A DNA stretch of 53,541 nt, taken from positions 1-53,541 of IMG/VR virus record IMGVR_UViG_3300022751_000003. One strand, written 5' to 3'. This document shows, one piece after another, positions 17,370 through 37,591 of the stretch; positions within the stretch are counted from its first letter, which is position 1, and each line of letters opens with the position of its first letter. The translations under genes were made by a program, and so were the position numbers. Origin of the DNA: a virus. The notes below the pieces were generated by a model, which ran no database searches, had not been told where the DNA came from, and saw nothing but the letters and a program-made list of their open reading frames with translations.

Positions 17370-17409
17370 AACGAGATAACCAATTAGACCACACGAAAAA
17401 TTAACAACT

Positions 17410-20897: not shown

Positions 20898-21154
20898 AAG
20901 CAACCATTTTAACCATCCTCGCCTTAATAGTTTTGGCGGGGTGCAAACAAGGTGAGCCGGTTAAAAACGTCACCAACAGTAAAGATGATTTTGCAGTTCA
21001 ACTACTTTTCGAAGTGGATGGATGCAAGGTGTATCGATTTACAGATTACCGAACTGTATATTTCAGTGATTGCAGGGGCAAGATTGAAAGCACATATACG
21101 ACAAGATCTGGCAAGACAACCACTACTCATCAACAAGATACTTTAAACAATTAA
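20894..21154 (+). CDS. lipoprotein (lipobox LAGC)
   Basis: N-terminus MKATILTILALIVLAGCKQ has a signal peptide ending in an L-A-G-C lipobox. Confidence 0.55.
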   Translation: MKATILTILALIVLAGCKQGEPVKNVTNSKDDFAVQLLFEVDGCKVYRFTDYRTVYFSDCRGKIESTYTTRSGKTTTTHQQDTLNN

Positions 21155-22926: not shown

Positions 22927-23199
22927 TTACTTATCCTCATTCGGCACTATACCAAACAGCTTACTAAAACCAAACGCCAAAGCATCGGCCATTTTAAGTA
23001 GTAGCATCCATTCAACCTTTGCGCCTTTGCTGATTAACTCAGTACCGGCAATCCAAATAGTAACCGCTGATGTTAAGATAAACACCGACCGGAACAGCCA
23101 GCTTGCCCAAACAGGAGTAGGCGCGCTTACTGCACCGAATTGAACTTTAGTTTCTGATACTGGTACCGCGGCGTTGTCAATTAGTATTTGCTTTTCCAT
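22927..23199 (-). CDS. two-TM membrane protein, holin candidate
   Basis: 90 aa. Hydrophobic segments WASWLFRSVFILTSAVTIWIAG and WMLLLKMADALAFGFSKLFGIV, with a charged C-terminal end. Last gene of the late strand, near the endolysin. Confidence 0.35.
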   Translation of the reverse strand: MEKQILIDNAAVPVSETKVQFGAVSAPTPVWASWLFRSVFILTSAVTIWIAGTELISKGAKVEWMLLLKMADALAFGFSKLFGIVPNEDK

Positions 23200-24279: not shown

Positions 24280-24699
24280 TTATGACAACTCAAAGTGTGG
24301 CTTATCCCAGCTACCCTTCCAATCACCGCCCCATCCAATCTTCACACCTAACTTACGGGCAACGAATTTAATATGGCTGGCAATAACGGATAACTTACCG
24401 TATTCATCGTTAAAATCAATCTTGCCATCAATATAAGGGTATAGGTCAACGGCATGATAATATCCGTCGGATTTGGCTTGGTGGTTAGACTTATTGCGCA
24501 CACCATCAGCATTGGTTACTTTTCCACCAGGAGCCGTACGCCCCTTAGCATACAATGCTTGTTGCTGAGCCGTAGTTCTACCTCCATCGGTTATAGTGAA
24601 GTCCACAGGCGTGTCTTTAATTGCCTCTTGCATAACTTTGATTAAGTTTGGGTGTACGCCTTTTAAGCTGTCTAAGCTACGTTTACCGAATTGTGCCAT
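24280..24699 (-). CDS. endolysin, peptidase M15 (VanY / L-Ala-D-Glu peptidase-like)
   Basis: SNHQAKSDGYYHAVDLYPY and WGGDWKGSWDKPHFEL are the M15 zinc-peptidase signatures. The track start is TTG; the ATG (MAQFGK) is at 24699. Confidence 0.8.
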   Translation of the reverse strand: MAQFGKRSLDSLKGVHPNLIKVMQEAIKDTPVDFTITDGGRTTAQQQALYAKGRTAPGGKVTNADGVRNKSNHQAKSDGYYHAVDLYPYIDGKIDFNDEYGKLSVIASHIKFVARKLGVKIGWGGDWKGSWDKPHFELS

Positions 24700-24728
24700 G
24701 TTGGTAAAGTTAAACAATCCCTGCCTAA

Positions 24729-24752
24729 TAAAAAAGCCCCGGTTAGGGGGCT
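24729..24752 (-). terminator. intrinsic terminator after the 619-aa fibre gene
   Basis: Minus-strand AAGCCCC-UAACC-GGGGCUU followed by a U run. Confidence 0.55.
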
Positions 24753-26611
24753 TAAATTACTGTCATTCTAACCTGAATATAATTAAAGTTCACTGGAGTA
24801 TTTTGCCATGCGCTCGGTACTACATTTCCCCAATCAGAATACACCGTAACGAATTGCTCGTTATTGGCAGTCAATGTAGGAGCCGAGTTGCTACCCCTAT
24901 ATTCAAAAGACACCGTCCTACCGACCGCGTCCACGATTGGTGCGTTGCCCATGTAATCAGATTTGCCATTTAGGAAAATAACCGGGCTGATACCATAACC
25001 TGTACCAAATAGGCCAAAACCCATTGGCGTTAACTTGCCGGTAAATTTCCATGTATCCCATCCATAGGTATAAGGGAATCGTATATCTTGTTTGTAGGTG
25101 CCGAACGGGTTAACCATTTTAGCCATATTCCCGTTGGGATTGAAACCATGCAAGTAAGCATCACCCTGTATCATCAAACCACGCGTCGCCTCGTCGTATG
25201 CCATACCCTCAATTTCCTGACCTAATACAGGGTTTGCACCGCTCCAAATCTGGGTATGTGGCGAACTATGACTGTATAGATATATGGTCGCGCCTGGACA
25301 CGTAAAAATACCTGGAGTACCAACCGCAAGCCCCTCAGCCGCACCAGGCGTTACAAAGCTATCTATCGGGTTTTTAGTAACAAGATCGTAAATGTATAAC
25401 GTTACAATATTATTGAACTTAATATAAAGCTTTTTATCATAAACCGCAATCATGCCCGCTTCTCCGGCAACAGCAGGGAAATAATCAGTTTTTACTTTTT
25501 GCCCCTGCCTGTTTACGCATATAATAACGCGGTTCCCATTATTGGCAGAGTCTGCGCCCTTAATTGTTCCAAACACATAAATATATCCCTCTTCCGCATC
25601 GTAAGCATTCCCTTGAATGTGATCAAGATATGGCGTTACATCTATAATTCTCGTGTAGTTGGGCGTTATAGTTCCTGTAGGTGAATATGGGGACAATTCA
25701 TTTTGTCTCGCCAAAGCCATTCTCGAACTGGCGGCATAATTATAAAGTGAAAATATAAACATACGCGACACGGGATCAACAGACATACCCGTGTTGCCGG
25801 AAATATACCCGTTTGCAGCACTGCCATTAACAGTGTCGGTATTGGGCGCTATAGTATACGCCTCGTTTTCATATGGTAATACAGTATTGCTTATTTTAAA
25901 ACTCGTCTCATAGACCCCATCTGCCCTTGTAACCCGTAGAAAACCGGCAGATGACAACGTAGCTGTAAGATTTACAGATCCGCGCATCGTTATGAATATA
26001 TTGCCAGTTACATCAACATTTGTATAACTGTACTTTGCGCTCACATTCGCGCCAACCATACAGTATATGGTAACGGTATTTGCATTAACGCGTTCAATAA
26101 ATATTTTCAACCTTGCACCGGCAGATAAAGCCAAACTGGCATTCGCGCCTGCAAATGAAGCCACTGCCGCCTGTGGACCCCTTAACAGTGTTCCATTCTG
26201 AGCTACCTGAAAAAAGGAAATCGGATTAACCAACGTAGTACCGAATCCTATACCGATTTGATAAGAACTTGTAACGACACTGTTAATCAGTAAATCGAGC
26301 TGCGTTATCCGACTATTTAAAGGCCAAAACTTACCAGTATTAAAGTAAGTAACATATGAACTTGTTCCGGCATCGGTTGGACCTGTTAAAACCACTGACT
26401 GGCCAGAGGCATTTTGTGTTATTCCGGCTATGGTAGCAGGTGGTACGGGGCTTTGTGTAGAGCCAGAAGAAAAACGCACGTATGGCATGGGTAGCACTAC
26501 TGATTCGTTTTCAAAAACGGTATTATCAGAAAAGAAAGGCACCGGACCCTTTAACATAGCTGTCACCTTTTTCCCATTAGCAATAAGCGATGGTGTATCT
26601 GAAATTATCAT
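24752..26611 (-). CDS. tail fibre / receptor-binding protein candidate (619 aa)
   Basis: Large beta-rich S/T/N/G-rich ORF at the distal end of the tail module. Start overlaps the upstream fibre gene. Confidence 0.45.
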   Translation of the reverse strand: MIISDTPSLIANGKKVTAMLKGPVPFFSDNTVFENESVVLPMPYVRFSSGSTQSPVPPATIAGITQNASGQSVVLTGPTDAGTSSYVTYFNTGKFWPLNSRITQLDLLINSVVTSSYQIGIGFGTTLVNPISFFQVAQNGTLLRGPQAAVASFAGANASLALSAGARLKIFIERVNANTVTIYCMVGANVSAKYSYTNVDVTGNIFITMRGSVNLTATLSSAGFLRVTRADGVYETSFKISNTVLPYENEAYTIAPNTDTVNGSAANGYISGNTGMSVDPVSRMFIFSLYNYAASSRMALARQNELSPYSPTGTITPNYTRIIDVTPYLDHIQGNAYDAEEGYIYVFGTIKGADSANNGNRVIICVNRQGQKVKTDYFPAVAGEAGMIAVYDKKLYIKFNNIVTLYIYDLVTKNPIDSFVTPGAAEGLAVGTPGIFTCPGATIYLYSHSSPHTQIWSGANPVLGQEIEGMAYDEATRGLMIQGDAYLHGFNPNGNMAKMVNPFGTYKQDIRFPYTYGWDTWKFTGKLTPMGFGLFGTGYGISPVIFLNGKSDYMGNAPIVDAVGRTVSFEYRGSNSAPTLTANNEQFVTVYSDWGNVVPSAWQNTPVNFNYIQVRMTVI

Positions 26612-27321
26612 ATAGTCGTTGTTATTGCATAGTTAATAGTTGGGTCGAAATCGCCCGGTAACATAGCGTTTGCCTGCGCCCTCGTCAGGTTAATTTGCTT
26701 AGGCCGTAATGCCAGTTCGTCAAAAACACCATTACTCGACACGGGGTTATTGCTCCCGTCTGTGGGGGTTGCATCGACTGTGATGTTTGCGCCGTCGCCG
26801 GGGTCGCCTTTATCTCCTTTTGCGCCGACTAAAGAAGCAAGCCACTGGTTAATATTTCCAGAGAAACCAGCCTGAACCGCAACTTGATAAGCACTCAATC
26901 CATTCGCGCCAGGCTGACCATCTTCGCCAACTAATGATGCTAACCATTGTTGCTCTGTACCTACAAAGCCGTTATCTACAGCAATTTCGTATGCAGATTT
27001 ACCGTCCGCGCCTGTACCGACGCCTCCCTGCGAAGCTTCTCCAATTCCCAACGATTCAAAGTAGGCCTGTACATCAGCCAACACACCAATCCTTTCGCCC
27101 TCTTCATCACAAACAAGACTTGGGTAAACATCCGTAAAGCCAAGCGCAGGCAGCCCAACCACAAGCAGCGTAACCCGGTCGTCTTCCGGCACATCATTAT
27201 CGAGGGTAAAATATTTTGCCGCTAAATTCTCCGGAGCCGCTACAACTGTGCCGCGTCCGTTGTTAATGTGTATGGAATTGTCTTCTTTCCATACTTTTTG
27301 TTTTGGTAATTCGTAAGCCAT
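26608..27321 (-). CDS. tail fibre protein with short collagen-like runs and an internal repeat
   Basis: GADGKSAYEIAVDNGFVGTEQQWLASLVGEDGQPGANGLSAYQVAVQAGFSGNINQWLASLVGAKGDKGDPG, the SAYE.AV..GF.G....WL.SL.G motif common in phage fibres. Confidence 0.65.
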   Translation of the reverse strand: MAYELPKQKVWKEDNSIHINNGRGTVVAAPENLAAKYFTLDNDVPEDDRVTLLVVGLPALGFTDVYPSLVCDEEGERIGVLADVQAYFESLGIGEASQGGVGTGADGKSAYEIAVDNGFVGTEQQWLASLVGEDGQPGANGLSAYQVAVQAGFSGNINQWLASLVGAKGDKGDPGDGANITVDATPTDGSNNPVSSNGVFDELALRPKQINLTRAQANAMLPGDFDPTINYAITTTI

Positions 27322-27346
27322 TTGGTCAAAGTTTTATAAAACCAAA

Positions 27347-27376
27347 AATAGCTAAAATGTGATTATTTTAGCTATT
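27347..27376. other. perfect 12-bp inverted repeat (AATAGCTAAAAT-gtgatt-ATTTTAGCTATT)
   Basis: Read directly. On the minus strand it is followed by TTTTGGTTTT, so it could be a weak terminator or an operator. Confidence 0.5.
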
Positions 27377-27403
27377 GTAACGTATTTTTAACAGAATGGT
27401 AAT

Positions 27404-27778
27404 CTAACTCATTGTATCTACAAAAACTTTAGGCACGCGCTTATATGTTACAGACCATGTGAGAAACATAACAAGGATATAAGTAAGGAAATGATTCAAC
27501 CTGTCCCATGTAGTTAGTATATAAAGCGACTCCGGAATGGTCATGTGGTATTCGTAATACGCTTTAAACCTTGCCCAAAAAGCCGGTATCTCTGATGCTG
27601 TAGCAGATATATAGTAAAGAACAATTATTATTTGCACCCACCAATCATTCGATTTATGTTCCAGCCTGCGTAAGTACCGGACATGAAACCACGCCCAAAA
27701 GGGTAACATAGCTACAATTAGTATATTGATTGCAGTAATTATTAGTTGATTACTACTGACTGCTGTTTGTTGATCCAT
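27404..27778 (-). CDS. polytopic membrane protein (124 aa)
   Basis: Several hydrophobic segments: LIITAINILIVAMLPFWAWF, VQIIIVLYYISA, FLTYILVMFLTW. Confidence 0.55.
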   Translation of the reverse strand: MDQQTAVSSNQLIITAINILIVAMLPFWAWFHVRYLRRLEHKSNDWWVQIIIVLYYISATASEIPAFWARFKAYYEYHMTIPESLYILTTWDRLNHFLTYILVMFLTWSVTYKRVPKVFVDTMS

Positions 27779-28115
27779 TACCTTTAATATTAGTGAGGAA
27801 CGTTCCTCCTGTTATTATACCGTACCATAATGCCGCTAATAGCATGCCAGCATTTACAATAGCGTATAATTGAATTGGGAAACCATAGAAATCAAAGTCT
27901 AAAGTAGATTTTGCATAAGGTATTTGAAGAAATATAAAAGCGGCTGTACAACCTGCGGCCTTAACCCGTGCTGTAACTTTATTACTTTTCGGCTGGGTAT
28001 TAAGGCTCATTTTTATACTTCTATCTATATATTTCCATAATACAATGACTACACCAATAACAAAAATCACAATTTTAGCAAGTGCGAACCATTGCTCTTG
28101 GCAGCCTATATTCAT
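27753..28115 (-). CDS. polytopic membrane protein (120 aa)
   Basis: Hydrophobic segments FALAKIVIFVIGVVIVLW, AAGCTAAFIFLQI, LYAIVNAGMLLAALWYGIITGG. Confidence 0.55.
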   Translation of the reverse strand: MNIGCQEQWFALAKIVIFVIGVVIVLWKYIDRSIKMSLNTQPKSNKVTARVKAAGCTAAFIFLQIPYAKSTLDFDFYGFPIQLYAIVNAGMLLAALWYGIITGGTFLTNIKGNGSTNSSQ

Positions 28116-28119
28116 TATA

Positions 28120-28482
28120 TTATTTAAATAATCCGTTTCTCCATGAACTAATAAATACTAAAGTACAAATCAATATCCAAAAGCAGTTGTATGCTGTAAT
28201 CTGTATAATTGGGTGGTTTAGTATTCCGTGGTGCGTTAAAATTATTAATAAAAAGTTACAAATCACACATATTGCAGTAAATCTTCCTATAAGTTCCCGC
28301 ATAAACGTGCTATAGCCGTTCCAGCTATCAACAACATAATAAGTTAAAATTAAAGCCGTGGTGTATGAATACCACAGCTTCTTAGTCTCGGGCAAATACG
28401 CCGGATTGGTTAAATTACATACGTAAGCATTGAACGACAATAGATAGGCTACTAAAGCCAATATTGAACTGGCTAATCTCAT
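28120..28482 (-). CDS. polytopic membrane protein (120 aa)
   Basis: About four hydrophobic segments: SSILALVAYLLSF, TTALILTYYVV, FTAICVICNFLLIIL, CFWILICTLVFISS. Confidence 0.55.
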   Translation of the reverse strand: MRLASSILALVAYLLSFNAYVCNLTNPAYLPETKKLWYSYTTALILTYYVVDSWNGYSTFMRELIGRFTAICVICNFLLIILTHHGILNHPIIQITAYNCFWILICTLVFISSWRNGLFK

Positions 28483-28661
28483 GGATGGCCACCAATATCA
28501 AGAACGCATTTTTGTAGAGTTTCGCTCCAATAGTACCCAGTATCGCAATCATGATCTCTCTGCGTTTCTGATCCTGGCTTAATAAGCCCCATTAATTCAA
28601 AACCCTCAATTACTTTTTCTTTGCCGATTTTATCGACTAATTTTTTAACGATTTGTTCCAT
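28479..28661 (-). CDS. hypothetical soluble protein (60 aa)
   Basis: ORF with an ATGA overlap to the next gene. It shares a 15-nt start context with the gene at 27321. Confidence 0.45.
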   Translation of the reverse strand: MEQIVKKLVDKIGKEKVIEGFELMGLIKPGSETQRDHDCDTGYYWSETLQKCVLDIGGHP

Positions 28662-28804
28662 TTGGTCAAAGTGTTTTTATTTACCCGAATATACGATTTT
28701 GAAAAGAAACAGAAAACCAGAATAAAGGTCACAACCAAGAATATTTCTATTTTAATAATAGCTACTCCACATAGTGTTTTTATTTCTGATTCTGTTGGTT
28801 TCAT
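28637..28804 (-). CDS. single-TM small membrane protein (55 aa)
   Basis: The ATG (MKPTESEIK) overlaps the stop of the upstream gene by 1 nt (TAATG). TM segment IEIFLVVTFILVFCFF. Confidence 0.4.
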   Translation of the reverse strand: MKPTESEIKTLCGVAIIKIEIFLVVTFILVFCFFSKSYIRVNKNTLTKWNKSLKN

Positions 28805-29397
28805 TAGAATGCATCCCTGTAAAGCCAAAAATTAGTTAGTGAACTTGTTCCCAAACCGACACCAGTAAACTGCAAAGATACACTCAATGTATTGTCTGTA
28901 GAACCGGTAGCCGCGAACGCTCCGACAGGCGTAGCGGAAGCGGTAGTTAAGTTAATAATCGTTCCGTTAGGCTGTCTTATTTCAGCAAAGGGTATCTGAG
29001 TATTCATGCCGGTAGCAATCATATAAAACTCAACCGTGAACAACTGGTTTGCAGCGCCGCCTGTGAGAGGCGTACTGCTTAATAGGTTGAACGTTTGACC
29101 CCCATATTGAAATGTTATTGAAAGCCCTGGTATACTAATAAGAGGGGTTGTAAGTCTAAAGGTCATATACAATCTGTACCAACGCGTAGGGATAAAAGTA
29201 TTGGCGGGGATGACTTCGCTATAGAAAACAGTTGAGGGGCTTGATTGCGTAATCGTGGTTCCAGGCGACATAGATATTATGCCGCCCATTGGTGTAACAA
29301 TCTTATTGGATTGCCCCTGAGCCTTGCCAATATTCCCGTGGGATATTTGCCAGAATAAAAACAACAACGAAGTGGTGTAGAATAATATTCGCTTCAT
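28804..29397 (-). CDS. exported protein (197 aa, Sec signal peptide)
   Basis: N-terminus MKRILFYTTSLLFLFWQISHGNIGKAQG. The rest is S/T/G-rich and beta-rich. Confidence 0.55.
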   Translation of the reverse strand: MKRILFYTTSLLFLFWQISHGNIGKAQGQSNKIVTPMGGIISMSPGTTITQSSPSTVFYSEVIPANTFIPTRWYRLYMTFRLTTPLISIPGLSITFQYGGQTFNLLSSTPLTGGAANQLFTVEFYMIATGMNTQIPFAEIRQPNGTIINLTTASATPVGAFAATGSTDNTLSVSLQFTGVGLGTSSLTNFWLYRDAF

Positions 29398-29398
29398 T

Positions 29399-32300
29399 TT
29401 AGTAAACTGTTATTGTGCCGTTAAGCGGTTGTAGATAATATGAGTTAGTTCCGGTTGGAATAAGTTGAACCTTTTGACCTTGTGTAAGAGTTGCTCCGCC
29501 TGTACCCGCAGTTGTAGCGAAAGTAGTACCGCTTTGCATAGAATAACCGGATGGTACAACTATTTTAGCGCCGCCTGTGCCTGTTACAAGTATGGTGATA
29601 ATCTTAGTGCCATCAGATGTAAAACCATTACATGGGGGCAAAGTAAGGTTATACTGCGTAGCGGATGTATTTATATAATCCCCGTTCAATAGCATGGTTG
29701 CATTAGCGGAAACGTTATAAGGCGTACGATACATCGGGTCATTCCCCTTAACCAACGTATACCTTGTACCATCACAATAAAACATTGCACTATTTAGCAC
29801 ATTGTACGTTGTCGAAGTTGTTTTTGTGTTTGGATCCCAAATATTGCCCCCTGACGAAATACTTACTTGAATGGTATTTGCGCTTGCATCTGTTTTAACA
29901 ACCGTAAAGTAACTCCCCCTGCTTAACTCCGAGTCGAACCCATCGGTTAATGCCGGCAATGAAAACGGGATATTACCAGATGTACAATCGTACTGTACTA
30001 TCCTATCGTATACGGTTGCACTATAACTTGCTGTTTTTGGCGTTGCGTTTACGCGTAGCTGGTTAACTTGCCTGAACCCTGCTAATGTATCGGTGTTTTG
30101 CGTAAGTGTTTTTTGGTATATGCTATTACTGTTTGGGCTGGTAGTTCTCAACTGAACACCGCCCAAGCCTGTATTCCCGTTTCTAACCTGCGCGTATGCT
30201 CCGAATAAACCACCAGAGCCTATTATGTTTATTCCATTAATATTCCCGCTTACGTTTAACGTCCCCGTTATTGTTTGAGGATTAACCTTATTAAGCTTGT
30301 CGTAGTAATAGCTTGTTAAAGCCAGGGTGTCGTTCGCGTTACCGTTTACAGGTAGTACATATGCGCGTGTTCCGGTTGTAAAAGTGCTTGGTACTCTAAG
30401 GCTTACCGTTCCAGTTGCATTACTATCTACCCTTAACGTCCATGCACCGCTGGTTGTAACGGCGTTTCTTATCTCTACTGAACTGGTGAAAAAAGCAGGA
30501 GCTTTCCATCTTTTAGACCCAGTAACATCTTGGCTCGTTGTACGAGTTACCGCATCCCCTACGTTAGTTGTATAAGTCCTGTTAGCGCTTAAATCTTGAG
30601 TTACACCATCAATAGTAATGGTTCGAGTTGTTGGAACACCTGCCGTAACGTCGCTTAAATAGGCTAATTGATTTTCTGTTGTTCCGTCCAAGTACCTCAA
30701 GCGCGTGTTAGCAGTGCTTACGTATAATGAGTACGCGTTGTTTGTTGTAGGTGTTATAGCCGCTTGGTTTTTAAATTGCAAAGGTGGCAAAGTACTGCCG
30801 TTGGGATCAATCAAAAATAAAGAATATGGGTTAACCGATTTATTAACATCCATAAAATTAACGCCGTGGTATCTTAAAAGCATGTTGCCATCAGCGCCTA
30901 TTTGCCATGGTTTATACCCCCCTATATCAGCATTCAAATATTGGCCTTTAAGAACAACTTGGGATGAGCCAACCCCACGAGTAATAACATTAGCTTCCCC
31001 GTATGATTGACCGTCGGTAACTTGGTCTATGGTGTTTGAAATAACCGTACCCGCAGATGCCGACGGTACACGTCCACTATTATCAACTGTATTACCTGCT
31101 GTATTAAACAAATTCAACGTAACAGCATTGCCCGATAAATCGGCGCGGGTTGTTCCAGATGTTTCGTCTAACTCATACCTTACAACTAAATTTCCAGTAT
31201 ATGGCGGGTTGGTTCCTAATCCACTGTTATAGTTAACCGCTACATTGGCAGCTGAAATATTTGCATTGCCGAATTTAACCTGGTCGAAGCTACCGCTACA
31301 ATATAAACCCGGTGTTAAATCCCTTCCTATAAAAAAGCCAGCGCCGTTTCCAATATCTAAAGTTACTGTTTGAGTTGCTTTAGCAACACCGTCTAAATAG
31401 GTACGTATTATAGTACCGTCATATGTTACGTCAATATGGTGCCATTGTTGATCTGTAACTATATCGCCTGCTATGTTAACAGATACGTTACCACCTACAC
31501 TATTTATTGCTCCAAACCTGGCGTTGCCACCTACAATTGATATACCTGCGGATTTAGCCACCGATCCCCATTTAACCATAACACCCTGAGTGCCTGAACC
31601 TGTATACCTATACCAGTAATCCACATAAAACGGTGACGCCCCTGATGGGAACAATGCATCGGAGGCGCTCGCATATTGTGTAGAGGACGCAAGCAAATTC
31701 AATGCGCGGCCTGCATTCCCAGCTGGTTTATTGCCATTGAATATGGTGAAGTTATTCAGCAACGCATCTAACTGCATCCCGCCTGAACCGCCAGTAGTAG
31801 TTAGACTGAATTTGGGTAGTGTTTTACTAATGGTCTGATCTGCCGTAAAAATATTGGCCAATTCCAAGCCAGGTACCGTGTAAGAAGCATCTACGAAGTT
31901 GTAAACCCGGTCGGCTGTTAAAGCGGGGCTACCAAGTGTCCGCGTAAACCCCAACGGCGACTTCCATGAAAAACGCCCCGTAGCATCAGCGAATAGGTTA
32001 AAGCCGCCTGTGGGCGTTGCTGGCATAGTGCTTTGCGACGGGAAGAATGAATAACCGTTGCCGCCTGTACCGGTAACATCAAATCCTAAAGCCGAAATTC
32101 GTAAAGTAGTTGCGTTGCCTCTGTTTGTTACGGCCTGTAAGTTCTCTAAGCCAAATTTGGTTTGTAGTTGTGCTAATGATAAACTGTTTGCCGTGGTTCG
32201 GATAAGGGTTGTATCTACAAAGAACTGTGTGCCGGTCAACCCAAGCCCGTAGCCATTGGTATAAGTTAGTCCGTAGCTAACAGTATTCCAAGCCGATGTA

Positions 32301-32572
32301 CTGTTGTTCCAACGGTAGGTTAAATCGGTAGCCCTAACATAAACCTCCATACCATCCCTTAATAATTGAGGATAGTAAGTGTTTAATGAATCGCGCCCGG
32401 CCAATGTAGCGTATGAATGCCTGCCTCCATTTAGCAGCACACTGTAACCAGTTGGGTAAGCATCGCCCGAGGCATTACGGATGATTGGCGCGCCTACCTT
32501 TATACCATTTGTATAAATTTGCGCGTTTGCCAAAAATGGCAGTAAGAAAAGTATGTGTAATAGTTTTTTCAT
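29399..32572 (-). CDS. large exported fibre-like protein with LamG/concanavalin-like segment (1057 aa)
   Basis: The start at MKKLLHILFLLPFLANAQ is 1 nt after the upstream stop. LamG_3-like ...YVDYWYRYTGSG...WHHIDVTYDGTIIRTYLDGV... Fibre-like LENLQAVTNRGNATT. Confidence 0.55.
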   Translation of the reverse strand: MKKLLHILFLLPFLANAQIYTNGIKVGAPIIRNASGDAYPTGYSVLLNGGRHSYATLAGRDSLNTYYPQLLRDGMEVYVRATDLTYRWNNSTSAWNTVSYGLTYTNGYGLGLTGTQFFVDTTLIRTTANSLSLAQLQTKFGLENLQAVTNRGNATTLRISALGFDVTGTGGNGYSFFPSQSTMPATPTGGFNLFADATGRFSWKSPLGFTRTLGSPALTADRVYNFVDASYTVPGLELANIFTADQTISKTLPKFSLTTTGGSGGMQLDALLNNFTIFNGNKPAGNAGRALNLLASSTQYASASDALFPSGASPFYVDYWYRYTGSGTQGVMVKWGSVAKSAGISIVGGNARFGAINSVGGNVSVNIAGDIVTDQQWHHIDVTYDGTIIRTYLDGVAKATQTVTLDIGNGAGFFIGRDLTPGLYCSGSFDQVKFGNANISAANVAVNYNSGLGTNPPYTGNLVVRYELDETSGTTRADLSGNAVTLNLFNTAGNTVDNSGRVPSASAGTVISNTIDQVTDGQSYGEANVITRGVGSSQVVLKGQYLNADIGGYKPWQIGADGNMLLRYHGVNFMDVNKSVNPYSLFLIDPNGSTLPPLQFKNQAAITPTTNNAYSLYVSTANTRLRYLDGTTENQLAYLSDVTAGVPTTRTITIDGVTQDLSANRTYTTNVGDAVTRTTSQDVTGSKRWKAPAFFTSSVEIRNAVTTSGAWTLRVDSNATGTVSLRVPSTFTTGTRAYVLPVNGNANDTLALTSYYYDKLNKVNPQTITGTLNVSGNINGINIIGSGGLFGAYAQVRNGNTGLGGVQLRTTSPNSNSIYQKTLTQNTDTLAGFRQVNQLRVNATPKTASYSATVYDRIVQYDCTSGNIPFSLPALTDGFDSELSRGSYFTVVKTDASANTIQVSISSGGNIWDPNTKTTSTTYNVLNSAMFYCDGTRYTLVKGNDPMYRTPYNVSANATMLLNGDYINTSATQYNLTLPPCNGFTSDGTKIITILVTGTGGAKIVVPSGYSMQSGTTFATTAGTGGATLTQGQKVQLIPTGTNSYYLQPLNGTITVY

Positions 32573-32573
32573 A

Positions 32574-33482
32574 TTATTGTGTAACCATTGTTGTGTTCCC
32601 GGCTGTTGCATTTTGCTGAGTGTATACCCTTAACGTTACACTGGCTCCGTCTACGTTATTCAAAGTCCTGCTAGTTGGCGTATATGACGTTAGCCCCTCC
32701 AATCCATTGGCATCTTTGATACTTGTTAAAGCTCCTGCGGCTGACCTATAAGCCAAAAATGGGTAGTTTGTGCCACTTGCAACTATAACAAAGGTGCCAT
32801 TCCTTGCATTATTCAATTCAATACCGCCGCCCGATGCTGCTAATATCTCAGCATCTGTTGGAACCAACCCCGCCGACCTTCCCCAAAAACGTTCATTTAC
32901 ATAATTAACCGTTGCACTCGCACTGGCTGATTTGCTCCCCGCCGTTGCCGTGAAAGTTATAGTAGTGCTTGTGTTAGTAGGATAGCTTGCGTTGTACGTA
33001 TCGCTACCACCTGCCGGGTTAGCCCCGCTTGTTTGACCGCCGCCGCTTGAATTGGTAAATTGCAAGCCGGTAAAATTCGGTGTGCCTGTTTGCTTTGAAT
33101 ACGTGCCTGTAAAAGTTGTACTTTGCGTAGTGGCTGCTGTTAACCTACGCGTTACACTCGTTGGGGATATGCTTACAATAGGATTTTGCGCCTGACTAAT
33201 ATCCTCCACCAAGTCCGTAAAGCTGTTAATTACCTTGCCAACCGTAAAAGTACTACGCGTAATGGTAAATGGGAACTGATTTGTAGCGGTTGTAAGCGGG
33301 TATCCGAACCTGTACAGTCCTGCATATTGCCCGAAGTAAGTAACAGGATAGTTACCGTCCATCCTTGCCGTATTCTGGCTCTGTGTGGTGCCGGGAGGGG
33401 GTGTTGCGCTGTTGGTGACTTGTGCACTCGCCACCACGCTCCAGCAACACAATATATATAAGAACATTTTCCTGATGGTCAT
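32574..33482 (-). CDS. exported protein (302 aa, Sec signal peptide)
   Basis: N-terminus MTIRKMFLYILCCWSVVASAQ. The rest is S/T/N-rich. Confidence 0.55.
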   Translation of the reverse strand: MTIRKMFLYILCCWSVVASAQVTNSATPPPGTTQSQNTARMDGNYPVTYFGQYAGLYRFGYPLTTATNQFPFTITRSTFTVGKVINSFTDLVEDISQAQNPIVSISPTSVTRRLTAATTQSTTFTGTYSKQTGTPNFTGLQFTNSSGGGQTSGANPAGGSDTYNASYPTNTSTTITFTATAGSKSASASATVNYVNERFWGRSAGLVPTDAEILAASGGGIELNNARNGTFVIVASGTNYPFLAYRSAAGALTSIKDANGLEGLTSYTPTSRTLNNVDGASVTLRVYTQQNATAGNTTMVTQ

Positions 33483-33554
33483 AACATTTCCTGATAGGTT
33501 GGGTTAAAGTTATATAATTTTCTGATAACGGCAAAATTGTGATAGAATGGGGTG

Positions 33555-33562
33555 TATGTTTG
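33555..33562 (+). promoter_or_regulatory. candidate -7 box (TATGTTTG) for the antisense gene
   Basis: TAnnTTTG match about 40 nt upstream of the ATG at 33602. Confidence 0.3.
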
Positions 33563-33601
33563 TGTAATGCCAGTGGTTGGCAGGATAAAACAGCGACAAA
33601 A

Positions 33602-34045
33602 ATGAAAAAGGAAACAATTTACGAAAACGATGATGTTATCATTAATGTAGAATACCCGGAAAAAGAAGAAAAAAAAGCTACGCAAAGTAGTTGGTTGCTT
33701 GTTTTACCTGTATTTATGTTTGCATTTATAATATCAATTGTTTTTCTACTGATTGATACAACAGCTTTACATAATGCTTATGAAAATAAGCTATTCTTGC
33801 CAAAGTGCGACTGTAAAGAAAAGCTACCAAAAACAGTTAGTATTGTATATAACGGTAGTTATTACGCAGTTAAAAGACAACATGAAAAATATGGAGAACA
33901 ATATTTATGGTCTGGTAGCCATGGATTTGACTGGATGTATCCGTCAATTGCAAAAGGAGATTATTTTTTAGATACTTGCAATGCTAAAGCAGCCTTGTTT
34001 TATAATAAAAAAATTCATAGAAATAAGATGAAAGACTTTCGTTAA
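33602..34045 (+). CDS. single-pass membrane protein encoded antisense to the late operon (147 aa)
   Basis: The track start is GTG; the first ATG gives MKKETIYEN... TM segment SSWLLVLPVFMFAFIISIVFLLI. It has its own terminator. Confidence 0.5.
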   Translation: MKKETIYENDDVIINVEYPEKEEKKATQSSWLLVLPVFMFAFIISIVFLLIDTTALHNAYENKLFLPKCDCKEKLPKTVSIVYNGSYYAVKRQHEKYGEQYLWSGSHGFDWMYPSIAKGDYFLDTCNAKAALFYNKKIHRNKMKDFR

Positions 34046-34071
34046 GTTTCGTCGCTGTACTTAGCGATATA

Positions 34072-34107
34072 AGCGCGATTTCAGAATAACTCTGGTCGCG
34101 CTTTTTT
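34072..34107 (+). terminator. intrinsic terminator for the antisense gene
   Basis: AGCGCGA-N17-TCGCGCT followed by TTTTT on the plus strand. No U run in the minus orientation. Confidence 0.5.
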
Positions 34108-34543
34108 ATGCAACAAAGTTAACTTTCCTAACCGCAAACGGCACATAGCCACCATCCCAAAACATGCCGGTGACAGCGCCGCCGCCATCGTAAATGTACT
34201 GTGGATTGGCACCACTCACAAGTCCGTCATTAATTAAGAATGCAACAGGCTCAAAACCATCAAGTAGCGTACTCAGATCAGAGCCAAACATTACAGTTAC
34301 GGTGCTAAATCCATCGTCTGTAATTGTAGCATCGGGGTATTCTGTAGATGGGATGGATACTCTTGTACCGCCCGAAGGAGCCGCACCAATCAACTCCAGC
34401 AACACCCTGTAAGGCACCGCCGTATCAAGATCCATATCAGCCGCTAAATATGGAGTAGCATATTTTACCTTACTACGCGCTTCAATACTTTGCGTCCTGC
34501 CTGGTGCAACAATTACATCTACAACTTCTATATTCTTTCCCAT
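34106..34543 (-). CDS. hypothetical tail/fibre-associated protein (145 aa)
   Basis: ORF abutting the fibre gene. Confidence 0.5.
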   Translation of the reverse strand: MGKNIEVVDVIVAPGRTQSIEARSKVKYATPYLAADMDLDTAVPYRVLLELIGAAPSGGTRVSIPSTEYPDATITDDGFSTVTVMFGSDLSTLLDGFEPVAFLINDGLVSGANPQYIYDGGGAVTGMFWDGGYVPFAVRKVNFVA

Positions 34544-35604
34544 TATTCTACGGCTATAAAATATAAAACGGTTAACGAATCGGGTTGAATATCCATTTCA
34601 GTGCCATTACCTAAGTTTTGAGACTTTCCTACAAATGTGGTTCCGGATCCTACTGACTTGGTTAGCTCATAGTTTAGCGTTTTAGCAAAAGCATCTCCAC
34701 CAGAATAGCCAAGCGCACGGGCAACTTTATCATTGGTGGTTGGTATGTTACCATTAGCATTACCAACTTCATCAACAAACAAACCTATGCCCTCCGCAGG
34801 AAGGTTGGTTTTCAATATTGGTGCTGTATTATCTGTATTGCCTACGCGAACACCTACATTCTGGCCGGTTTCGTAGCCCACTGGGTATTTGCCCTCCATA
34901 TTGGGAGTTCCGTTCGTGCCCATGATAACGCAATTATCATAGCCGCTTTCTGGTTTACCGTATCCCGTTACAAAATCCCACGCTTCATTCAAGTGTCCAT
35001 CATAAAGCGGAACAAACATGCCCATTGTCCCTTTATTGTATAGGCGTGTCCCACTTGCCGGGCTTGGCACACTTGCCGGGCTTTCATCATGCTGATACCA
35101 AAGGATGAATAAACTGTAATTATTGCCGTTCAGACCGGTCAAATAAAGCGTTTCAGGTTGCGTGAAAGGGAAGTTTCGCTCAATAAACACCGCCCCTAAA
35201 TCAACATCAATGTCCAGTATTTCACCGCCGCCGTTAGTAGTGCCTACTTTGAGAGGTATCGAACCACCGCTATTGTTCACAATGGCTATGCCGTACAGGT
35301 TAGAATAGTTACGGAATGTAGCCGAAATCGTAATGTCTGACGATTGGTTGATGTAAGAAGCCTTCCTAAGCGACTGAACCGAATCTAAGTAAGTAATGAA
35401 GTATGGTAGTTCTGAAAACTTCTTTGTTCCATCGCCAATTTTGAAATTTACCGGCAACCTATCGCCCTCACTAACAACAAAAGCTTGTTCCCCCTCGAAA
35501 ATCAGCCCCAATTCATCCTCTACCAATAGCCACTCAGCCTCAGTAGCAATTTTTTGCTTTACCCTGGCTAATATTACCTGATAATCTGCTTCGGTTAGTG
35601 GCAT
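34543..35604 (-). CDS. tail fibre protein
   Basis: N-terminal ATEAEWLLVEDELGLIFEGEQAFV...FKIGDGTKKFSELPYF matches the T.AEW...GE...K.GDG...W.ELPY motif of phage fibre/hyaluronidase N-termini. The C-terminal part is collar-like. Confidence 0.6.
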   Translation of the reverse strand: MPLTEADYQVILARVKQKIATEAEWLLVEDELGLIFEGEQAFVVSEGDRLPVNFKIGDGTKKFSELPYFITYLDSVQSLRKASYINQSSDITISATFRNYSNLYGIAIVNNSGGSIPLKVGTTNGGGEILDIDVDLGAVFIERNFPFTQPETLYLTGLNGNNYSLFILWYQHDESPASVPSPASGTRLYNKGTMGMFVPLYDGHLNEAWDFVTGYGKPESGYDNCVIMGTNGTPNMEGKYPVGYETGQNVGVRVGNTDNTAPILKTNLPAEGIGLFVDEVGNANGNIPTTNDKVARALGYSGGDAFAKTLNYELTKSVGSGTTFVGKSQNLGNGTEMDIQPDSLTVLYFIAVE

Positions 35605-35605
35605 C

Positions 35606-37591
35606 TTAGTTACTTAGGATATTGGCATTGCTGCCGTAAAACTTTTCTGTAAATATAGCATTTACGTTTCTACATTCAATAGCGTTTAGGTTCACTTCGC
35701 ATTTTTCAATATTGTATGATGACGATAGTGGCATAAACGTTGTATCCTGCATAGAATCTATTAAATAGATCTCGTCAAATTGATACTCCTTTTTACGAAC
35801 TGACATACTACCAGTATATATTTCTGACGGATCTTTTCTGAAACGCATCATGGCGTTAGCAGTAAGTCCTGTCAGTGAACCTGTGTAGAAATTTCCGTCC
35901 TTAAAGTGAAACTCATTAGGGGAGTTTTGGTAAGCAGTCATGTAATTACTCACCATGTACCCGCCAAAAGAACTACTAATGCCTAATTCTACAGTTTCAA
36001 CAAGGGTGTTATTAGTGTTATCAAATGTGTTTTCGTAAATATCGTTATTTTTCTCTGCTGAAATGGTAACGTTGTCAAGGGTGTAAATGGCGGTGTAGGG
36101 ATATGCGGGATCGGGGTATACCAAGCCTAACGCGCCAATCTTTACCGAAATATCGCATACATCGCCGGGTTGCAACTCACCTGATGGTTGTGGAAGAACT
36201 ATACCCTGAAACTTATCAAACTTTACTTGTGCAATTTCCCCCAATTTCAAGCCCGGTATGTTTATTTTAATAGTTGTATCTATTGACGTCCAAAAACCAA
36301 ACTCATTTAAATAATAAGTGTTGCTATTGCACCTGTAAACCACTTGCAAATACAATGGGGAAGCTTCCATGTTCATAGTTTCGCCGTCATCACGAGGCGA
36401 ACCATCCGGATTGGTAAATTGAGTGTACCAACTTTGAGCTGAAAAAAGAAAGTTTAAGTCTATTTTCTTAAGTAAAACATACCCATCTACTGGAAGCGGA
36501 TTGAATAAGCCAACATATGAAATCTGATCTGAACTAACCACCCCTAAAGGCGTAACCTTTAATGCATATCCACCCCTGCCATCCAAAGATGATACTTGCT
36601 CAATATTTATCGGGTTGCTTCCTATCTGTCCCCAGTATAAAGGGGATGCTAAACTCCAAAGGTCAAAGTTCCCATTCGGTAATATATTCTCCCGAACATC
36701 GGCTTCGTATTCAACCTTTACGGTTTTTAAACCTGGCTTGTTGATCATTAACTGATCTTCATTAACCATTGGGTACCCATCACGGCCAATTTTTCGCCTT
36801 ATGTTTTCTGTACCTGTAGAAATCACAAGTTGCCCCAATCCATCTCCCACACGCTTGAAGTCCATTGCCCCAGTTACGCTATCATTCACGCGCCGTATTA
36901 CCCATGTGCCATTACTTTGATAGATACGGCACTGCATAGATTTTAGCAAATTAGAGATAATATACCCGCAACTATTCCCTGTAAATCCCTCGCCCCGGGT
37001 TGACCACTGCACAGCGCCCGTAAACACGTCCTGGTCGGGGAATGCATTACACTCTAAATTATTTGTCCATTTAATTGGCAATGGCAATCCTAAGTTGCTC
37101 CCGGCAAACAATATTTGCCTGAAATAATTCATAGGGCATCTTGACCCCTCATTGCCTGTTCCGAATAAATTATCATGCACATAAGGCATATCGTCAAGAA
37201 ATGTTAACCCATCTTTAGCGGCAAGTGTGAACTGCTTTGCCACCCCTACCAATCGCCGTTGTGTATCCTTTGAATCCAAGTAACCAGTCCAGAATAGAGA
37301 TGAATTTCGGTAAACATTTACCTTATATTGCCTATCCGTAGCGCGCTGAAACTCCTTAATATCAACCTGCCCCTGATTGTATAGGTTCATGGTTAGAGTT
37401 GATGTAACAGCCCAGCTATACGGGTTGTCCTGATCTACAGAAGCCCACGACAAAACAGCACATTGCCCCTCGACTGCACGAATGGTAATCGTAGGGCTTG
37501 TGGGCGTTACGGTATAGGTTGACAACAATATATCAACCTTCCATGAAACATCGTCTATAGCCTTAAATGGTATGGTATATTTTACGCCCAT
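35606..37591 (-). CDS. distal tail / baseplate hub protein candidate (661 aa)
   Basis: Immediately downstream of the tape measure (TAATG overlap), the usual Dit/Tal position in siphoviruses. Confidence 0.45.
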   Translation of the reverse strand: MGVKYTIPFKAIDDVSWKVDILLSTYTVTPTSPTITIRAVEGQCAVLSWASVDQDNPYSWAVTSTLTMNLYNQGQVDIKEFQRATDRQYKVNVYRNSSLFWTGYLDSKDTQRRLVGVAKQFTLAAKDGLTFLDDMPYVHDNLFGTGNEGSRCPMNYFRQILFAGSNLGLPLPIKWTNNLECNAFPDQDVFTGAVQWSTRGEGFTGNSCGYIISNLLKSMQCRIYQSNGTWVIRRVNDSVTGAMDFKRVGDGLGQLVISTGTENIRRKIGRDGYPMVNEDQLMINKPGLKTVKVEYEADVRENILPNGNFDLWSLASPLYWGQIGSNPINIEQVSSLDGRGGYALKVTPLGVVSSDQISYVGLFNPLPVDGYVLLKKIDLNFLFSAQSWYTQFTNPDGSPRDDGETMNMEASPLYLQVVYRCNSNTYYLNEFGFWTSIDTTIKINIPGLKLGEIAQVKFDKFQGIVLPQPSGELQPGDVCDISVKIGALGLVYPDPAYPYTAIYTLDNVTISAEKNNDIYENTFDNTNNTLVETVELGISSSFGGYMVSNYMTAYQNSPNEFHFKDGNFYTGSLTGLTANAMMRFRKDPSEIYTGSMSVRKKEYQFDEIYLIDSMQDTTFMPLSSSYNIEKCEVNLNAIECRNVNAIFTEKFYGSNANILSN

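Follow-up and report, generated by a model that had tools for sequence, protein, structure and literature searches.

A block of genes within the tail-fibre region of this phage is conserved and exchangeable between phages, and three of its products carry predicted signal peptides for export. The window analysed here, i.e., the whole stretch of 53,541 nucleotides, derives from an uncultured phage whose hosts are probably Bacteroidota. The block, or cassette, encodes three exported proteins of 302, 1057 and 197 residues, a 60-residue protein with a pair of cysteines, and three conserved polytopic membrane proteins. Our preferred reading, to which we assign a probability of roughly 0.4, is that it specifies a non-virion lectin/fibre complex, targeted to the periplasm, by which the host envelope is remodeled or masked in the late phase of infection.

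Signal peptides of the exported proteins

The genes for the 302-, 1057- and 197-residue products occupy the minus strand from 28804 to 33482 in the list of open reading frames (ORFs), and the N-termini of all three are predicted to be Sec-type signal peptides cleaved by signal peptidase I. This call draws on a check against signal-peptide rules and on conservation across families, for which 41 sequences of the three exported families were drawn from different contigs. In all 41, Lys or Arg occurs in the n-region, a hydrophobic core follows, positions -3 and -1 are occupied by small residues, and position +1 is Gln. The segment preceding this Gln is free to vary in sequence and length (16-33 residues), and Gln accounts for only 4.2% of residues overall. 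The Gln is nonetheless invariant, as Q21 in the 302-residue family (nine sequences) and Q29 in the 197-residue family (14 sequences), and it occupies position +1 in 15 of 15 large proteins; in the alignments of the first two families, conservation of the mature protein begins exactly at this residue. The n/h/c pattern, together with a Gln that is invariant in 41 of 41 sequences despite such variable peptides, puts these signal peptides beyond chance. The sequence-only reading, which had proposed signal peptides on three consecutive late genes, is thus borne out by this conservation; every relative found keeps a hydrophobic N-terminus, contrary to the refuting case named with that reading, and the description of export signals on fibre-like proteins inside a fibre region is factually right.

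A Gln at +1 after the predicted cleavage is the Bacteroidetes 'Q-rule', which applies only to substrates of signal peptidase I in that group (PMC5837995); the Q-rule, with its pyroglutamate, stabilises extracytoplasmic proteins (PMC10653852). The rule-based check revealed no lipobox in the three exported proteins, position +1 being Gln and not Cys. Likewise, these proteins gave no NCBIfam match at E<=1 to the C-terminal sorting domains of type IX secretion (T9SS; TIGR04183 and TIGR04131), and their C-termini are without the basic terminal motif of type IX cargo, so that assignment to this pathway was rejected. With neither a T9SS C-terminal domain nor a lipobox, the periplasm is the default location of the exported proteins, and the earlier suggestion of an exported adhesin, taken as surface display, lacks a route.

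Products and layout of the block

The 302-residue protein (32574-33482, minus strand) has a signal peptide at residues 1-20, with predicted cleavage between ASA and Q, a low-confidence N-terminal segment, and two Ig-like beta-sandwich domains. Its AF2 model has a pLDDT of 67, with residues 100-200 at about 85-92. Foldseek returned only generic tandem Ig-like matches for this model, and no match was found in Pfam, PHROG, NCBIfam or PADLOC. The tandem Ig-like domains, as modeled, fit an extracytoplasmic role.

The 1057-residue protein (29399-32572, minus strand; counted from MKKLL, the longest ORF there being 1070 residues) is an exported mosaic tail-fibre-like protein. Its signal peptide (residues 1-17, cleaved between ANA and Q) and the Gln are kept in all 15 relatives, and the proteins of this family span 700-1400 residues. 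After the signal peptide come an N-terminal domain that varies between relatives, the fibre core (about residues 150-260), which is conserved, the LamG domain, a shaft that is again variable and, last, a C-terminal domain that is conserved. The LamG-like segment claimed previously is real: residues 297-445 (31238-31684, minus strand) match the LamG/concanavalin-A-like lectin family Laminin_G_3 (Pfam PF13385; E=5.2e-13; 49.8 bits against a cutoff of 27.6). This is the sole family match of the window protein, besides a weak one to a PHROG of unknown function (E=0.024). One relative, P0124, carries a Peptidase_S74 chaperone domain (E=1e-11), and ATTAFV-type motifs are found in relatives. The C-terminal domain of about 95 residues (29402-29695, minus strand), delimited by family alignment, is kept across otherwise unrelated shafts and is 100% identical to that of L001, a locus described below. 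A T9SS C-terminal domain was ruled out for this region by the lack of an NCBIfam match; it may be the docking site of the 197-residue protein.

The latter (28804-29397, minus strand) has a signal peptide of about 26-28 residues, ending in KA before QGQ. The AF2 model is a beta-sandwich jelly-roll (pLDDT 74), which matches the C-terminal domains of phage tailspikes and fibres in BFVD (Foldseek, E about 1e-7, TM about 0.5) and, weakly, legume lectins in the PDB. The fold is therefore predicted to resemble the tip domains of phage receptor-binding proteins (RBPs). An outer-membrane beta-barrel of the Lom/Ail type was rejected, since the model is a jelly-roll sandwich and Pfam yielded no match. 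LamG and the lectin-like jelly-roll, the latter taken from the model, point to glycan binding by the 1057- and 197-residue proteins. The exported proteins have low charge, a high Ser/Thr content and 0-4 Cys each, with no enrichment of the Bacteroidetes O-glycosylation sequon.

The 60-residue protein (28479-28661, minus strand) begins with a helix, carries the conserved motif C-x-x-GYY...C and has neither a signal peptide nor a transmembrane segment; its family was found in six loci, with weak, sub-threshold CBM_14 matches in three members. The three membrane proteins, all on the minus strand, have 2-4 hydrophobic segments each as counted by Kyte-Doolittle hydropathy. Membrane protein 1 (28120-28482, 120 residues) has about four such segments and a conserved NF...H...RNGLFK motif, with no family match in searches of Pfam, PHROG, NCBIfam and PADLOC profiles. 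Membrane protein 2 (27753-28115, 120 residues) has an N-terminal transmembrane segment and a conserved ITGGTYLTNIKGNG C-terminus. Membrane protein 3 (27404-27778, 124 residues) has 3-4 hydrophobic segments and conserved EIPAFW and TWDR motifs. It matches DUF6541 below threshold (E=0.018, 13.8 bits against a cutoff of 29), and its L001 copy matches EpsG, again below threshold (E=0.002, 17.6 bits against 30.1). These matches may reflect just the composition of membrane proteins; as a weak lead, part of the Wzy-like, glycan-polymerase-type EpsG and DUF6541 families might resemble membrane protein 3. GtrA, GtrB and acyltransferases had no match among the membrane proteins.

The ORFs of the sequence-only reading were recovered at their coordinates on the minus strand, and its 60-residue soluble and three polytopic proteins stand, but the single-transmembrane protein that it also listed is doubtful. 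This ORF (28637-28804, minus strand; 55 residues from ATG 28804, or 63 from TTG 28828) is confined to two loci, the window and L001, which is near-identical here; outside the overlap it differs between them by four non-synonymous and no synonymous changes, whereas the 197-residue gene, compared with the same locus, shows 16 synonymous and two non-synonymous differences. Elsewhere among the loci the equivalent site is empty or taken by another gene, and the ORF is possibly a non-coding spacer.

The tight coupling reported earlier was also found: gaps of 1 nt separate the 302-, 1057- and 197-residue genes from one another, a TAATG overlap lies at 28802-28806 and an ATGA overlap at 28479-28482, and the genes for membrane proteins 2 and 3 overlap by 26 nt. 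The flanks are as described, with tape-measure and tail-tip genes upstream and a collagen-like fibre and a putative RBP downstream. Between the tail-tip genes and the cassette is a gap (33483-34105) that contains a 168-residue transmembrane ORF on the opposite strand (33539-34045, plus) and a stable hairpin (34071-34103; dG -24.9 kcal/mol, z -4.1), after which the plus strand has a U-run; in L003 the equivalent site contains two genes on the opposite strand. The downstream neighbor is a signal-less, collagen-like tail fibre of 237 residues (26608-27321, minus strand), with PHROG tail-fibre and tail-assembly matches down to E=2e-21; it is co-inherited with the cassette, and its C-terminal part is common to L001. 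Then comes the signal-less, putative RBP of 619 residues (24752-26611, minus strand; 70% identical to a 622-residue protein of L001), with a strong intrinsic terminator 3' of its gene (24734-24753) and an M15-type endolysin beyond.

Inheritance of the block

Seven distinct loci of related phages from metagenomes carry the cassette, located directly 3' of tail-tip or baseplate genes and 5' of signal-less fibre or RBP genes. Its place in the tail module, 3' of the tail-tip or baseplate genes, was seen by synteny in the window, L001-L003, L005, L006 and L010. No match to a cultured phage was found. In L002, L005 and L006 it adjoins the tail-tip genes directly, with reading frames that overlap or abut. 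A further comparison is with L001, an otherwise unrelated phage with a Baseplate_J/Mu-hub tail, whereas the window phage has a tape-measure tail. The two share a DNA block with 86.5% identity (27321-32087, minus strand; blastn), whose upstream edge falls inside the 1057-residue gene, past its N-terminal ~160 codons, as judged from per-gene and sliding identity. The blastn comparison also indicates that the cassette was co-transferred with the neighboring RBP genes.

The 197-residue, 60-residue and three membrane proteins are 73-99% identical to those of L001. Relative to L006 they are 38-68% identical (55-68% if the 60-residue protein is excluded), against about 21% for the tail genes. Relative to L002 the order is reversed, i.e., 27-40% for these five proteins against 62-64% for the 661- and 353-residue tail-tip proteins, with 38% for the tape measure and 29% for a 145-residue protein. 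Judged by protein identity, the five thus vary together as a single unit, and do so without regard to the tail genes. The term 'cassette' is apt, in that the block passes as a whole, by descent and by exchange between phages with unrelated tails; it is an ancestral part of the late region of this lineage, and not a recent insertion in this phage.

Proposed role and relation to known systems

In the mechanism that we propose, the host Sec machinery would translocate the 302-, 1057- and 197-residue proteins late in infection, and signal peptidase I would cut them; the new N-terminal Gln would probably become pyroglutamate, as in secretory proteins of Bacteroidota. In the periplasm they would fold into a fibre/lectin complex, with the Ig-like 302-residue protein at the N-terminal end of the LamG-bearing fibre and the 197-residue jelly-roll on the conserved C-terminal domain of this fibre. 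The 60-residue protein and the three small inner-membrane proteins would cooperate with this complex, which, working from the periplasm, would bind or block a glycan or receptor of the envelope. In this way the surface recognized by the co-inherited virion RBP would be masked or remodeled. If true, the outcome would be superinfection exclusion, with progeny kept from adsorbing to debris. Against this reading, a trimeric-fibre architecture of 700-1400 residues, with an S74 chaperone in one relative, is an odd design for a blocker, the known masking proteins Llp and Cor being small lipoproteins. The genes in L002, L005 and L006 occupy the slot where siphoviruses normally encode the main fibre, and the breakpoint of the exchange falls past the N-terminal domain, in the manner of the anchor/shaft mosaics seen in real virion fibres. 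Further, the tip, i.e., the C-terminal domain with the 197-residue protein, is more conserved than the shaft, which is unexpected if it tracks a variable receptor, and the outer face of the outer membrane is out of reach for a periplasmic protein. Lastly, the cassette proteins have no homology to known exclusion or seroconversion proteins in Pfam, PHROG, NCBIfam or PADLOC, and the PADLOC defence models gave only chance-level matches (E>0.01).

A rival reading takes the proteins as virion fibres that mature in the periplasm: they would be exported, trimmed, capped with pyroglutamate and joined to finished tails only when holin and endolysin mix the compartments at lysis, the membrane proteins helping to anchor or release them. 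Fibre, Ig-like adaptor and tip lectin would then trimerise in the periplasm and dock on cytoplasm-built tails after lysis begins. The position directly after the tail-tip or baseplate genes in three loci, the tail-fibre modules of relatives (Peptidase_S74, ATTAFV-type motif) and the RBP-tip-like folds all argue for such a route, as does the N-terminal domain: it differs between tape-measure and Baseplate_J carriers, as a virion anchor would, and identity elsewhere in the protein reaches 100%. In T4, fibres can join fibreless particles in lysates. The stabilisation of extracytoplasmic proteins by pyroglutamate (PMC10653852) is likewise in its favor. Fibre maturation via the envelope, an option raised from the sequence, thus gains some support, notably from the S74 domain of P0124, but we consider it unlikely. 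To our knowledge, no tailed phage has a two-compartment assembly pathway or assembles a virion part from the periplasm; every locus also has separate signal-less fibre and RBP genes, which can serve the virion; and the inheritance of the 197-residue and membrane proteins does not follow that of the tail genes. Nor is there an obvious chemical reason for export, given the few Cys and the sequon content, or a place in the tail for small polytopic membrane proteins. Somewhat less probable still is that the products are soluble lectins or adhesins that act extracellularly, stored in the periplasm and freed at lysis or in vesicles to bind polysaccharide or neighboring cells, e.g., to saturate the receptors on debris, clump host cells or attach to a biofilm matrix. 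Lectin-type folds, low charge and high Ser/Thr are consistent with this, as are late co-expression with the structural genes up to the terminator after the RBP gene and a Q-rule that stabilises exposed proteins (PMC10653852). However, there is no recognized outer-membrane route before lysis, release at lysis makes a signal peptide unnecessary, and the inner-membrane proteins that travel with the 197-residue gene are left unexplained.

An accessory device for lysis or its timing, with holin- or antiholin-like membrane proteins and periplasmic sensors or outer-membrane disruptors, would suit three holin-sized polytopic proteins with periplasmic partners in one late transcription unit, ~3 kb from the endolysin. 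The T4 protein RI is a periplasmic sensor of lysis inhibition. We find this improbable, since no cassette protein has a PHROG or Pfam match to holin, spanin or RI families, and lysis needs no proteins of 700-1400 residues with fibre modules. Moreover, a conserved holin candidate adjoins the endolysin in relatives and has a window homologue at 22927-23199, and a spanin-like pair (a signal-anchor protein and a lipoprotein) is found at 20559-21154, outside the cassette. With better candidates thus elsewhere in the genome, the cassette is not needed for lysis, and its proteins were rejected as spanins or holins. Least credible, to the point of being nearly negligible, is that the hydrophobic N-termini are uncleaved structural or membrane-insertion helices of ordinary tail proteins assembled in the cytoplasm. 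The AF2 models do show just an N-terminal helix, and the genes are within the tail module, but AxA-like residues at -3/-1 and Gln at +1, invariant in all 41 sequences though the 16-33 residues before them vary, are expected from selection for signal peptidase I and the Q-rule, not for a packing helix, and conservation starts exactly at the Gln.

Among known systems, the classical pairs of fibre and tip adhesin or chaperone (T4 gp37/gp38, lambda Stf/Tfa, T5 pb1, and the K1F endosialidase with its S74 chaperone) resemble the cassette in that a long fibre gene of mosaic make-up has a small partner gene behind it, and in an N-terminal domain that is swapped with tail type; the cassette in turn has an S74 intramolecular chaperone in one relative and an RBP-tip-like jelly-roll partner. 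Those pairs, however, are built in the cytoplasm from proteins that lack signal peptides, whereas the cassette has predicted cleavable signals on three proteins in all relatives, and membrane proteins follow. Seroconversion modules (GtrABC, Oac, D3 Iap/Wzy-beta) also place small polytopic inner-membrane proteins near tailspike or fibre genes, and change the surface glycan used as receptor. In contrast, the cassette has only weak, sub-threshold EpsG/DUF6541 similarity, no integrase was recognized among ORFs of at least 240 residues in this phage, and the known modules are without the exported lectin/fibre proteins found here. Lambda Lom and Bor are signal-peptide proteins encoded between tail and side-fibre genes and are non-virion proteins, as in our preferred reading; Lom differs in being a prophage-expressed, 8-stranded outer-membrane barrel, whereas coupling to late structural genes is seen for the cassette, whose 197-residue protein is modeled as a jelly-roll.

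Phages of Porphyromonas gingivalis, another case from Bacteroidota, encode Q-rule proteins of unknown function (Matrishin et al. 2023, PMC10367356), which likewise carry signal peptides for signal peptidase I that expose an N-terminal Gln; its authors proposed that they modify the outer membrane of the host. They differ in being five unnamed genes of temperate phages, for which the text consulted describes no fibre architecture or conserved cassette. Turning to T5 Llp and the Cor proteins of T1, phi80 and N15, the strict analogy fails: these are lipoproteins of about 60-80 residues with a lipobox Cys, whereas the cassette proteins have Gln at +1, 197-1057 residues in the window and 200-1400 across relatives, and no match to these families. 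The cassette also has fibre, lectin and Ig folds and three inner-membrane proteins, with no sequence relation to Llp or Cor. In T5-like phages, Llp types go with pb5 types, much as the cassette is co-transferred with the RBP genes. The T5 mechanism itself is described in PMC9586334. Although the defining features of Llp and Cor are absent, the broader idea of envelope or receptor remodeling beside RBP genes stays the best fit: Llp, Cor and the cassette proteins are phage-encoded, Sec-exported (by prediction for the cassette), and encoded beside and co-inherited with a receptor-binding gene, and Llp and Cor act on the host envelope, with a presumed role in superinfection exclusion and in the protection of progeny, much as we propose for the cassette.

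Signal peptides, relatives and probable host

The open reading frames of the cassette (27404-33482) proposed by the sequence-only reading are all present on the minus strand, with the coordinates and the tight coupling it had described. Three of them, encoding proteins of 302 aa (32574-33482), 1057 aa (29399-32572) and 197 aa (28804-29397), had been read as carrying Sec-type N-termini, and this pattern is kept in all family sequences: in 41 of 41, one or two Lys/Arg in the n-region precede a hydrophobic core free of charged residues, positions -3 and -1 are occupied by small residues, and +1 is Gln. No relative lacking a hydrophobic N-terminus was found. The 16-33 residues that precede the Gln show free variation of both sequence and length, and it is from the Gln onwards that the mature protein is conserved. 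The signal peptides are of host type and under selection. The relatives of the 1057-aa protein comprise six close or moderate ones from 5.8 billion proteins, seven from an exhaustive profile search and two from fetched loci. The output of the exhaustive search, an HMM built from the alignment of this protein, was dominated by giant LamG-repeat proteins, among which at least seven further true relatives were identifiable. The 197-aa family has at least 14 sequences, and the 302-aa family at least nine, plus a homologue at 24% identity in L001, one of the related metagenomic phage loci.

Gln at +1 in signal peptidase I substrates is known as the Bacteroidetes Q-rule (PMC5837995; PMC10653852). 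Because the N-termini follow this pattern, they argue for genuine cleavage of the predicted signal peptides and for a Bacteroidota host. A search of GTDB, with one genome per species, gave no match to the 197-aa family, and very few contigs came out of metagenome and IMG/VR scans, and most of these belong to a small number of JGI samples whose identifiers (Ga02477xx-Ga02478xx) are adjacent; thus, it is from the Q-rule pattern alone that we infer the host. Signal peptides are absent from the tail fibres of Bacteroides phage B40-8, so that their presence here is a lineage trait rather than a habit of the whole phylum, and the literature searched contained no paper on signal peptides in tail-fibre proteins of Bacteroidota phages. 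In the related locus L003, a fourth signal-peptide protein (16615-17748, 377 aa, MKKLLTVLLLLCYAFTVWA with Q at +1) lies between a GDSL-esterase fibre gene and a GH19 endolysin gene; that is, exported proteins of the fibre region extend beyond the three families studied. The invariant Q-rule signal also provides a sequence-only marker of host phylum for uncultured phages.

The window covers one complete phage genome (53,414 bp), whose assembly is circularly closed, since an exact 127-nt direct repeat stands at both ends (1-127 = 53415-53541). Among its products are a large terminase subunit, a portal protein, a DnaB helicase, DNA methylases, a tape-measure-sized protein of 1244 aa and an HK97-type capsid protein with at most ~28% identity to that of any cultured phage. 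There are no tRNAs in the window, and no ORF of at least 240 aa matches an integrase. Searches of 50,697 GenBank phages by blastn and tblastn found no cultured relatives of the cassette, the 1057-aa protein, its conserved core, the 197-aa protein or the 661-aa tail protein; only the capsid protein gave a match, a distant one. A 437-aa protein (48645-49958, plus strand) has a sub-threshold match to a TET-associated glycosyltransferase (TAGT, E=2e-4), and an N6/N4 DNA methylase gene (8875-9627) and a methyltransferase-like ORF (23257-24219) are present as well; together, these genes may point to DNA hypermodification.

Gene order and exchange of the cassette

The same gene order is found in seven distinct related metagenomic loci (L001, L002, L003, L005, L006 and L010 among them), besides duplicate copies. 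Tape-measure and tail-tip genes (baseplate genes in L001) are followed in some loci by an opposite-strand insert and in some by a gene for a ~300-aa signal-peptide protein; then come the big signal-peptide fibre and a ~190-aa signal-peptide protein, in some loci a 115-121-aa protein, the 60-aa protein with the three membrane proteins, a signal-less fibre with RBP or esterase genes, and finally the endolysin with small TM proteins. The full order was read in L001, L002, L003 and L006; the L005 sequence ends after the 60-aa gene, and BLAST did not recover the genes for the 60-aa and membrane proteins of L010.

In L002, L005 and L006 there is no gap between the last tail-tip gene and the first signal-peptide gene, which abut or overlap. 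At this junction the window has a 624-bp gap containing an opposite-strand, 168-aa single-TM ORF (33539-34045, plus strand) with its own terminator (hairpin 34071-34103 plus U-run, dG -24.9 kcal/mol, z -4.1), and in L003 the junction is occupied by two opposite-strand genes, of which one matches Pfam GP17 (PF17420). The junction looks like a hotspot for moron insertion. A TTTG-N19-TAACTTTA motif upstream of the 302-aa gene (33505-33535) was considered as the cassette's own promoter, but it occurs 9 times in the window versus 6.6 +/- 2.6 in shuffled sequences, that is, with no enrichment, and is retained as a lead only. At the other end, a strong intrinsic terminator (24734-24753, minus strand) stands directly after the gene for the 619-aa putative receptor-binding protein (RBP, 24752-26611), and thus between it and the downstream M15-type endolysin gene (24280-24717, minus strand; phrog_465, E=9e-46), which is therefore probably transcribed separately from the fibre genes.

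To what extent the block moves as a unit is seen from identity comparisons. L001 (JGI sample 3300022750) is a phage of a different kind, with Baseplate_J (E=9e-24) and a Mu gp44-like hub (E=5e-44); its baseplate-type tail (L001 603-9080) is unrelated to that of the window (34106-41325), which has a tape measure and tip proteins of 661, 353 and 145 aa. DNA similarity between the two is limited to window 32087-27321 (86.5%) and 26775-24730 (68%), with a boundary inside the big gene, past roughly its first 160 codons. Identity reaches about 100% over the C-terminal 400 residues of the big protein and 99% for the 197-aa protein, which suggests that the exchange of the cassette between the two phages was very recent. 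Relative to L002, the 661- and 353-aa tail-tip proteins are 62-64% identical and the cassette 27-40%; relative to L006, the tail genes are about 21% identical, and the 197-aa and membrane proteins 55-68%. Because these identities diverge from those of the tail, we conclude that the 197-aa protein, the 60-aa protein and the three membrane proteins are inherited together, independently of the tail. The conserved unit, inner-membrane proteins included, is co-transferred with the virion RBP genes; it is also independent of tail type, and every locus has a separate set of signal-less fibres.

Domain organization of the encoded proteins

The LamG-like segment noticed earlier in the 1057-aa protein is indeed a LamG/ConA-like domain (E=5e-13). 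The protein is strongly mosaic, consisting of a variable N-terminal domain, a highly conserved core of ~80 aa, the LamG domain, a variable shaft and a C-terminal domain of ~95 aa that is retained on unrelated shafts. Its relatives contain ATTAFV-type fibre motifs, and one of them, P0124, ends in a Peptidase_S74 intramolecular chaperone (E=1e-11); both are genuine building blocks of trimeric tail fibres. The model of the 197-aa protein (pLDDT 74) shows a signal helix and a jelly-roll sandwich, which resembles legume lectins weakly and, in BFVD, the distal domains of tailspikes and fibres of phages (E about 1e-7, TM about 0.5); an outer-membrane barrel was thus rejected. In the model of the 302-aa protein (pLDDT 67), a signal helix and an uncertain N-terminal part are followed by two Ig-like sandwiches. 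Residues 1-34 of the big fibre of L006 (7761-7862), which take in the signal peptide and the beginning of the mature protein, share 59% identity with the start of the ~300-aa family member in L005 (2334-2435). The N-terminal module can therefore belong to a separate Ig-like protein or be part of the fibre itself.

None of the three exported proteins has a lipobox or, beyond LamG, a match in Pfam, PHROG, NCBIfam or PADLOC, and no meaningful sequence relatives were found in the PDB. Known defence or exclusion systems were rejected on the negative PADLOC result, and T9SS cargo was rejected because no such C-terminal domain is found in any of the three. Each of the three membrane proteins, like the 60-aa protein, represents a family that is conserved across loci, has distinctive motifs and gives no significant family match; sub-threshold matches are to CBM_14 for the 60-aa family and to EpsG and DUF6541 for membrane protein 3 (27404-27778). 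No paralogy was detected among the membrane proteins. The single-TM protein of the sequence-only reading corresponds to an existing ORF (28637-28804, or to 28828 from TTG), found only in the window and the near-identical L001 sequence, but it is doubtful as a coding gene: outside the overlap it has four non-synonymous and zero synonymous changes (2 and 16 in the neighbouring 197-aa gene), and at its site other loci have a different 115-121-aa gene, or nothing.

Proposed function and comparison with known systems

The reading we favor, with a probability of about 0.4, is that the cassette is an envelope module that masks or remodels the surface recognized by the co-inherited RBP. The three signal-peptide proteins would be exported late and, for want of an outer-membrane route, would stay periplasmic or envelope-bound. 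There they would assemble into a complex in which the fibre has the Ig-like protein at its N-terminal end and the jelly-roll at its conserved C-terminal domain. Acting from the inside with the membrane proteins, this complex would bind or block a receptor or glycan of the envelope, so that the surface seen by the RBP is masked or remodeled.

The position of the genes, the fibre modules and an N-terminal swap that tracks tail type would also fit virion fibres that mature in the periplasm and are attached at lysis. However, topology speaks against this, the cassette is inherited independently of the tail, and the signal-less fibres would make such fibres redundant. Nor is there a rationale in cysteines or glycosylation sequons: export for disulfides or Bacteroidetes O-glycosylation was rejected, as each exported protein has 0-4 Cys and D[ST][AILVMT] is not enriched. 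We thus regard virion fibres of this kind as unlikely, and lectins or adhesins that work after release as quite unlikely. A role as lysis accessory is very improbable, and lysis candidates are located outside the cassette. These are a holin-like 90-aa protein (22927-23199), whose homologues adjoin endolysins, and a pair made up of a signal-anchor protein and a lipoprotein (20559-21154). The pair belongs to a set of three coupled small genes (20410-21154, plus strand), whose products are a TM protein of 50 aa, a protein of 112 aa that starts with a Q-rule signal peptide or signal anchor (MKKHILTLIAVVAMAVGAKG with Q at +1) and, from an overlapping gene, a lipoprotein of 86 aa (lipobox LAGC; phrog_6360, of unknown function, E=4e-11). 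The layout of these genes resembles an i-spanin/o-spanin pair or an exclusion lipoprotein. That the cassette proteins are not exported at all is scarcely credible; the remaining probability falls to a function of some other kind.

If masking or remodeling is correct, superinfection exclusion or progeny protection would here have a new architecture, in a phylum, the Bacteroidota, about whose phage biology little is known. If instead the fibres reach virions, they would be an exception to the rule that tailed-phage particles assemble wholly in the cytoplasm. The three new families of exported proteins and three of membrane proteins are concrete targets for experiment, and the cassette, its three uncharacterized membrane proteins included, moves as a unit between differently tailed phages.

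P. gingivalis phages are reported to encode Q-rule proteins of unknown function (PMC10367356). B40-8 is without such a cassette, and no mobile conserved cassette combining full-length fibre-type proteins that carry export signals with dedicated membrane proteins was found in the literature searched. Sec-exported phage proteins encoded within the tail-fibre region, beside receptor-binding genes, are already known, namely Llp, Cor and Lom, which are small lipoproteins or barrels; there is a minority chance that the cassette is something categorically new. The Llp/Cor-like receptor masking suggested by the sequence-only reading holds as an analogy, in that the proposed action would be alike, as it would be for seroconversion modules; nevertheless, the cassette lacks the defining features of Llp/Cor, it matches glycan-modifying membrane families below threshold at best, and it is classed with neither kind. 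Unlike Llp, Cor and Lom, it encodes full-size mosaic proteins of tail-fibre type, with tip-domain-like and Ig-like partners.
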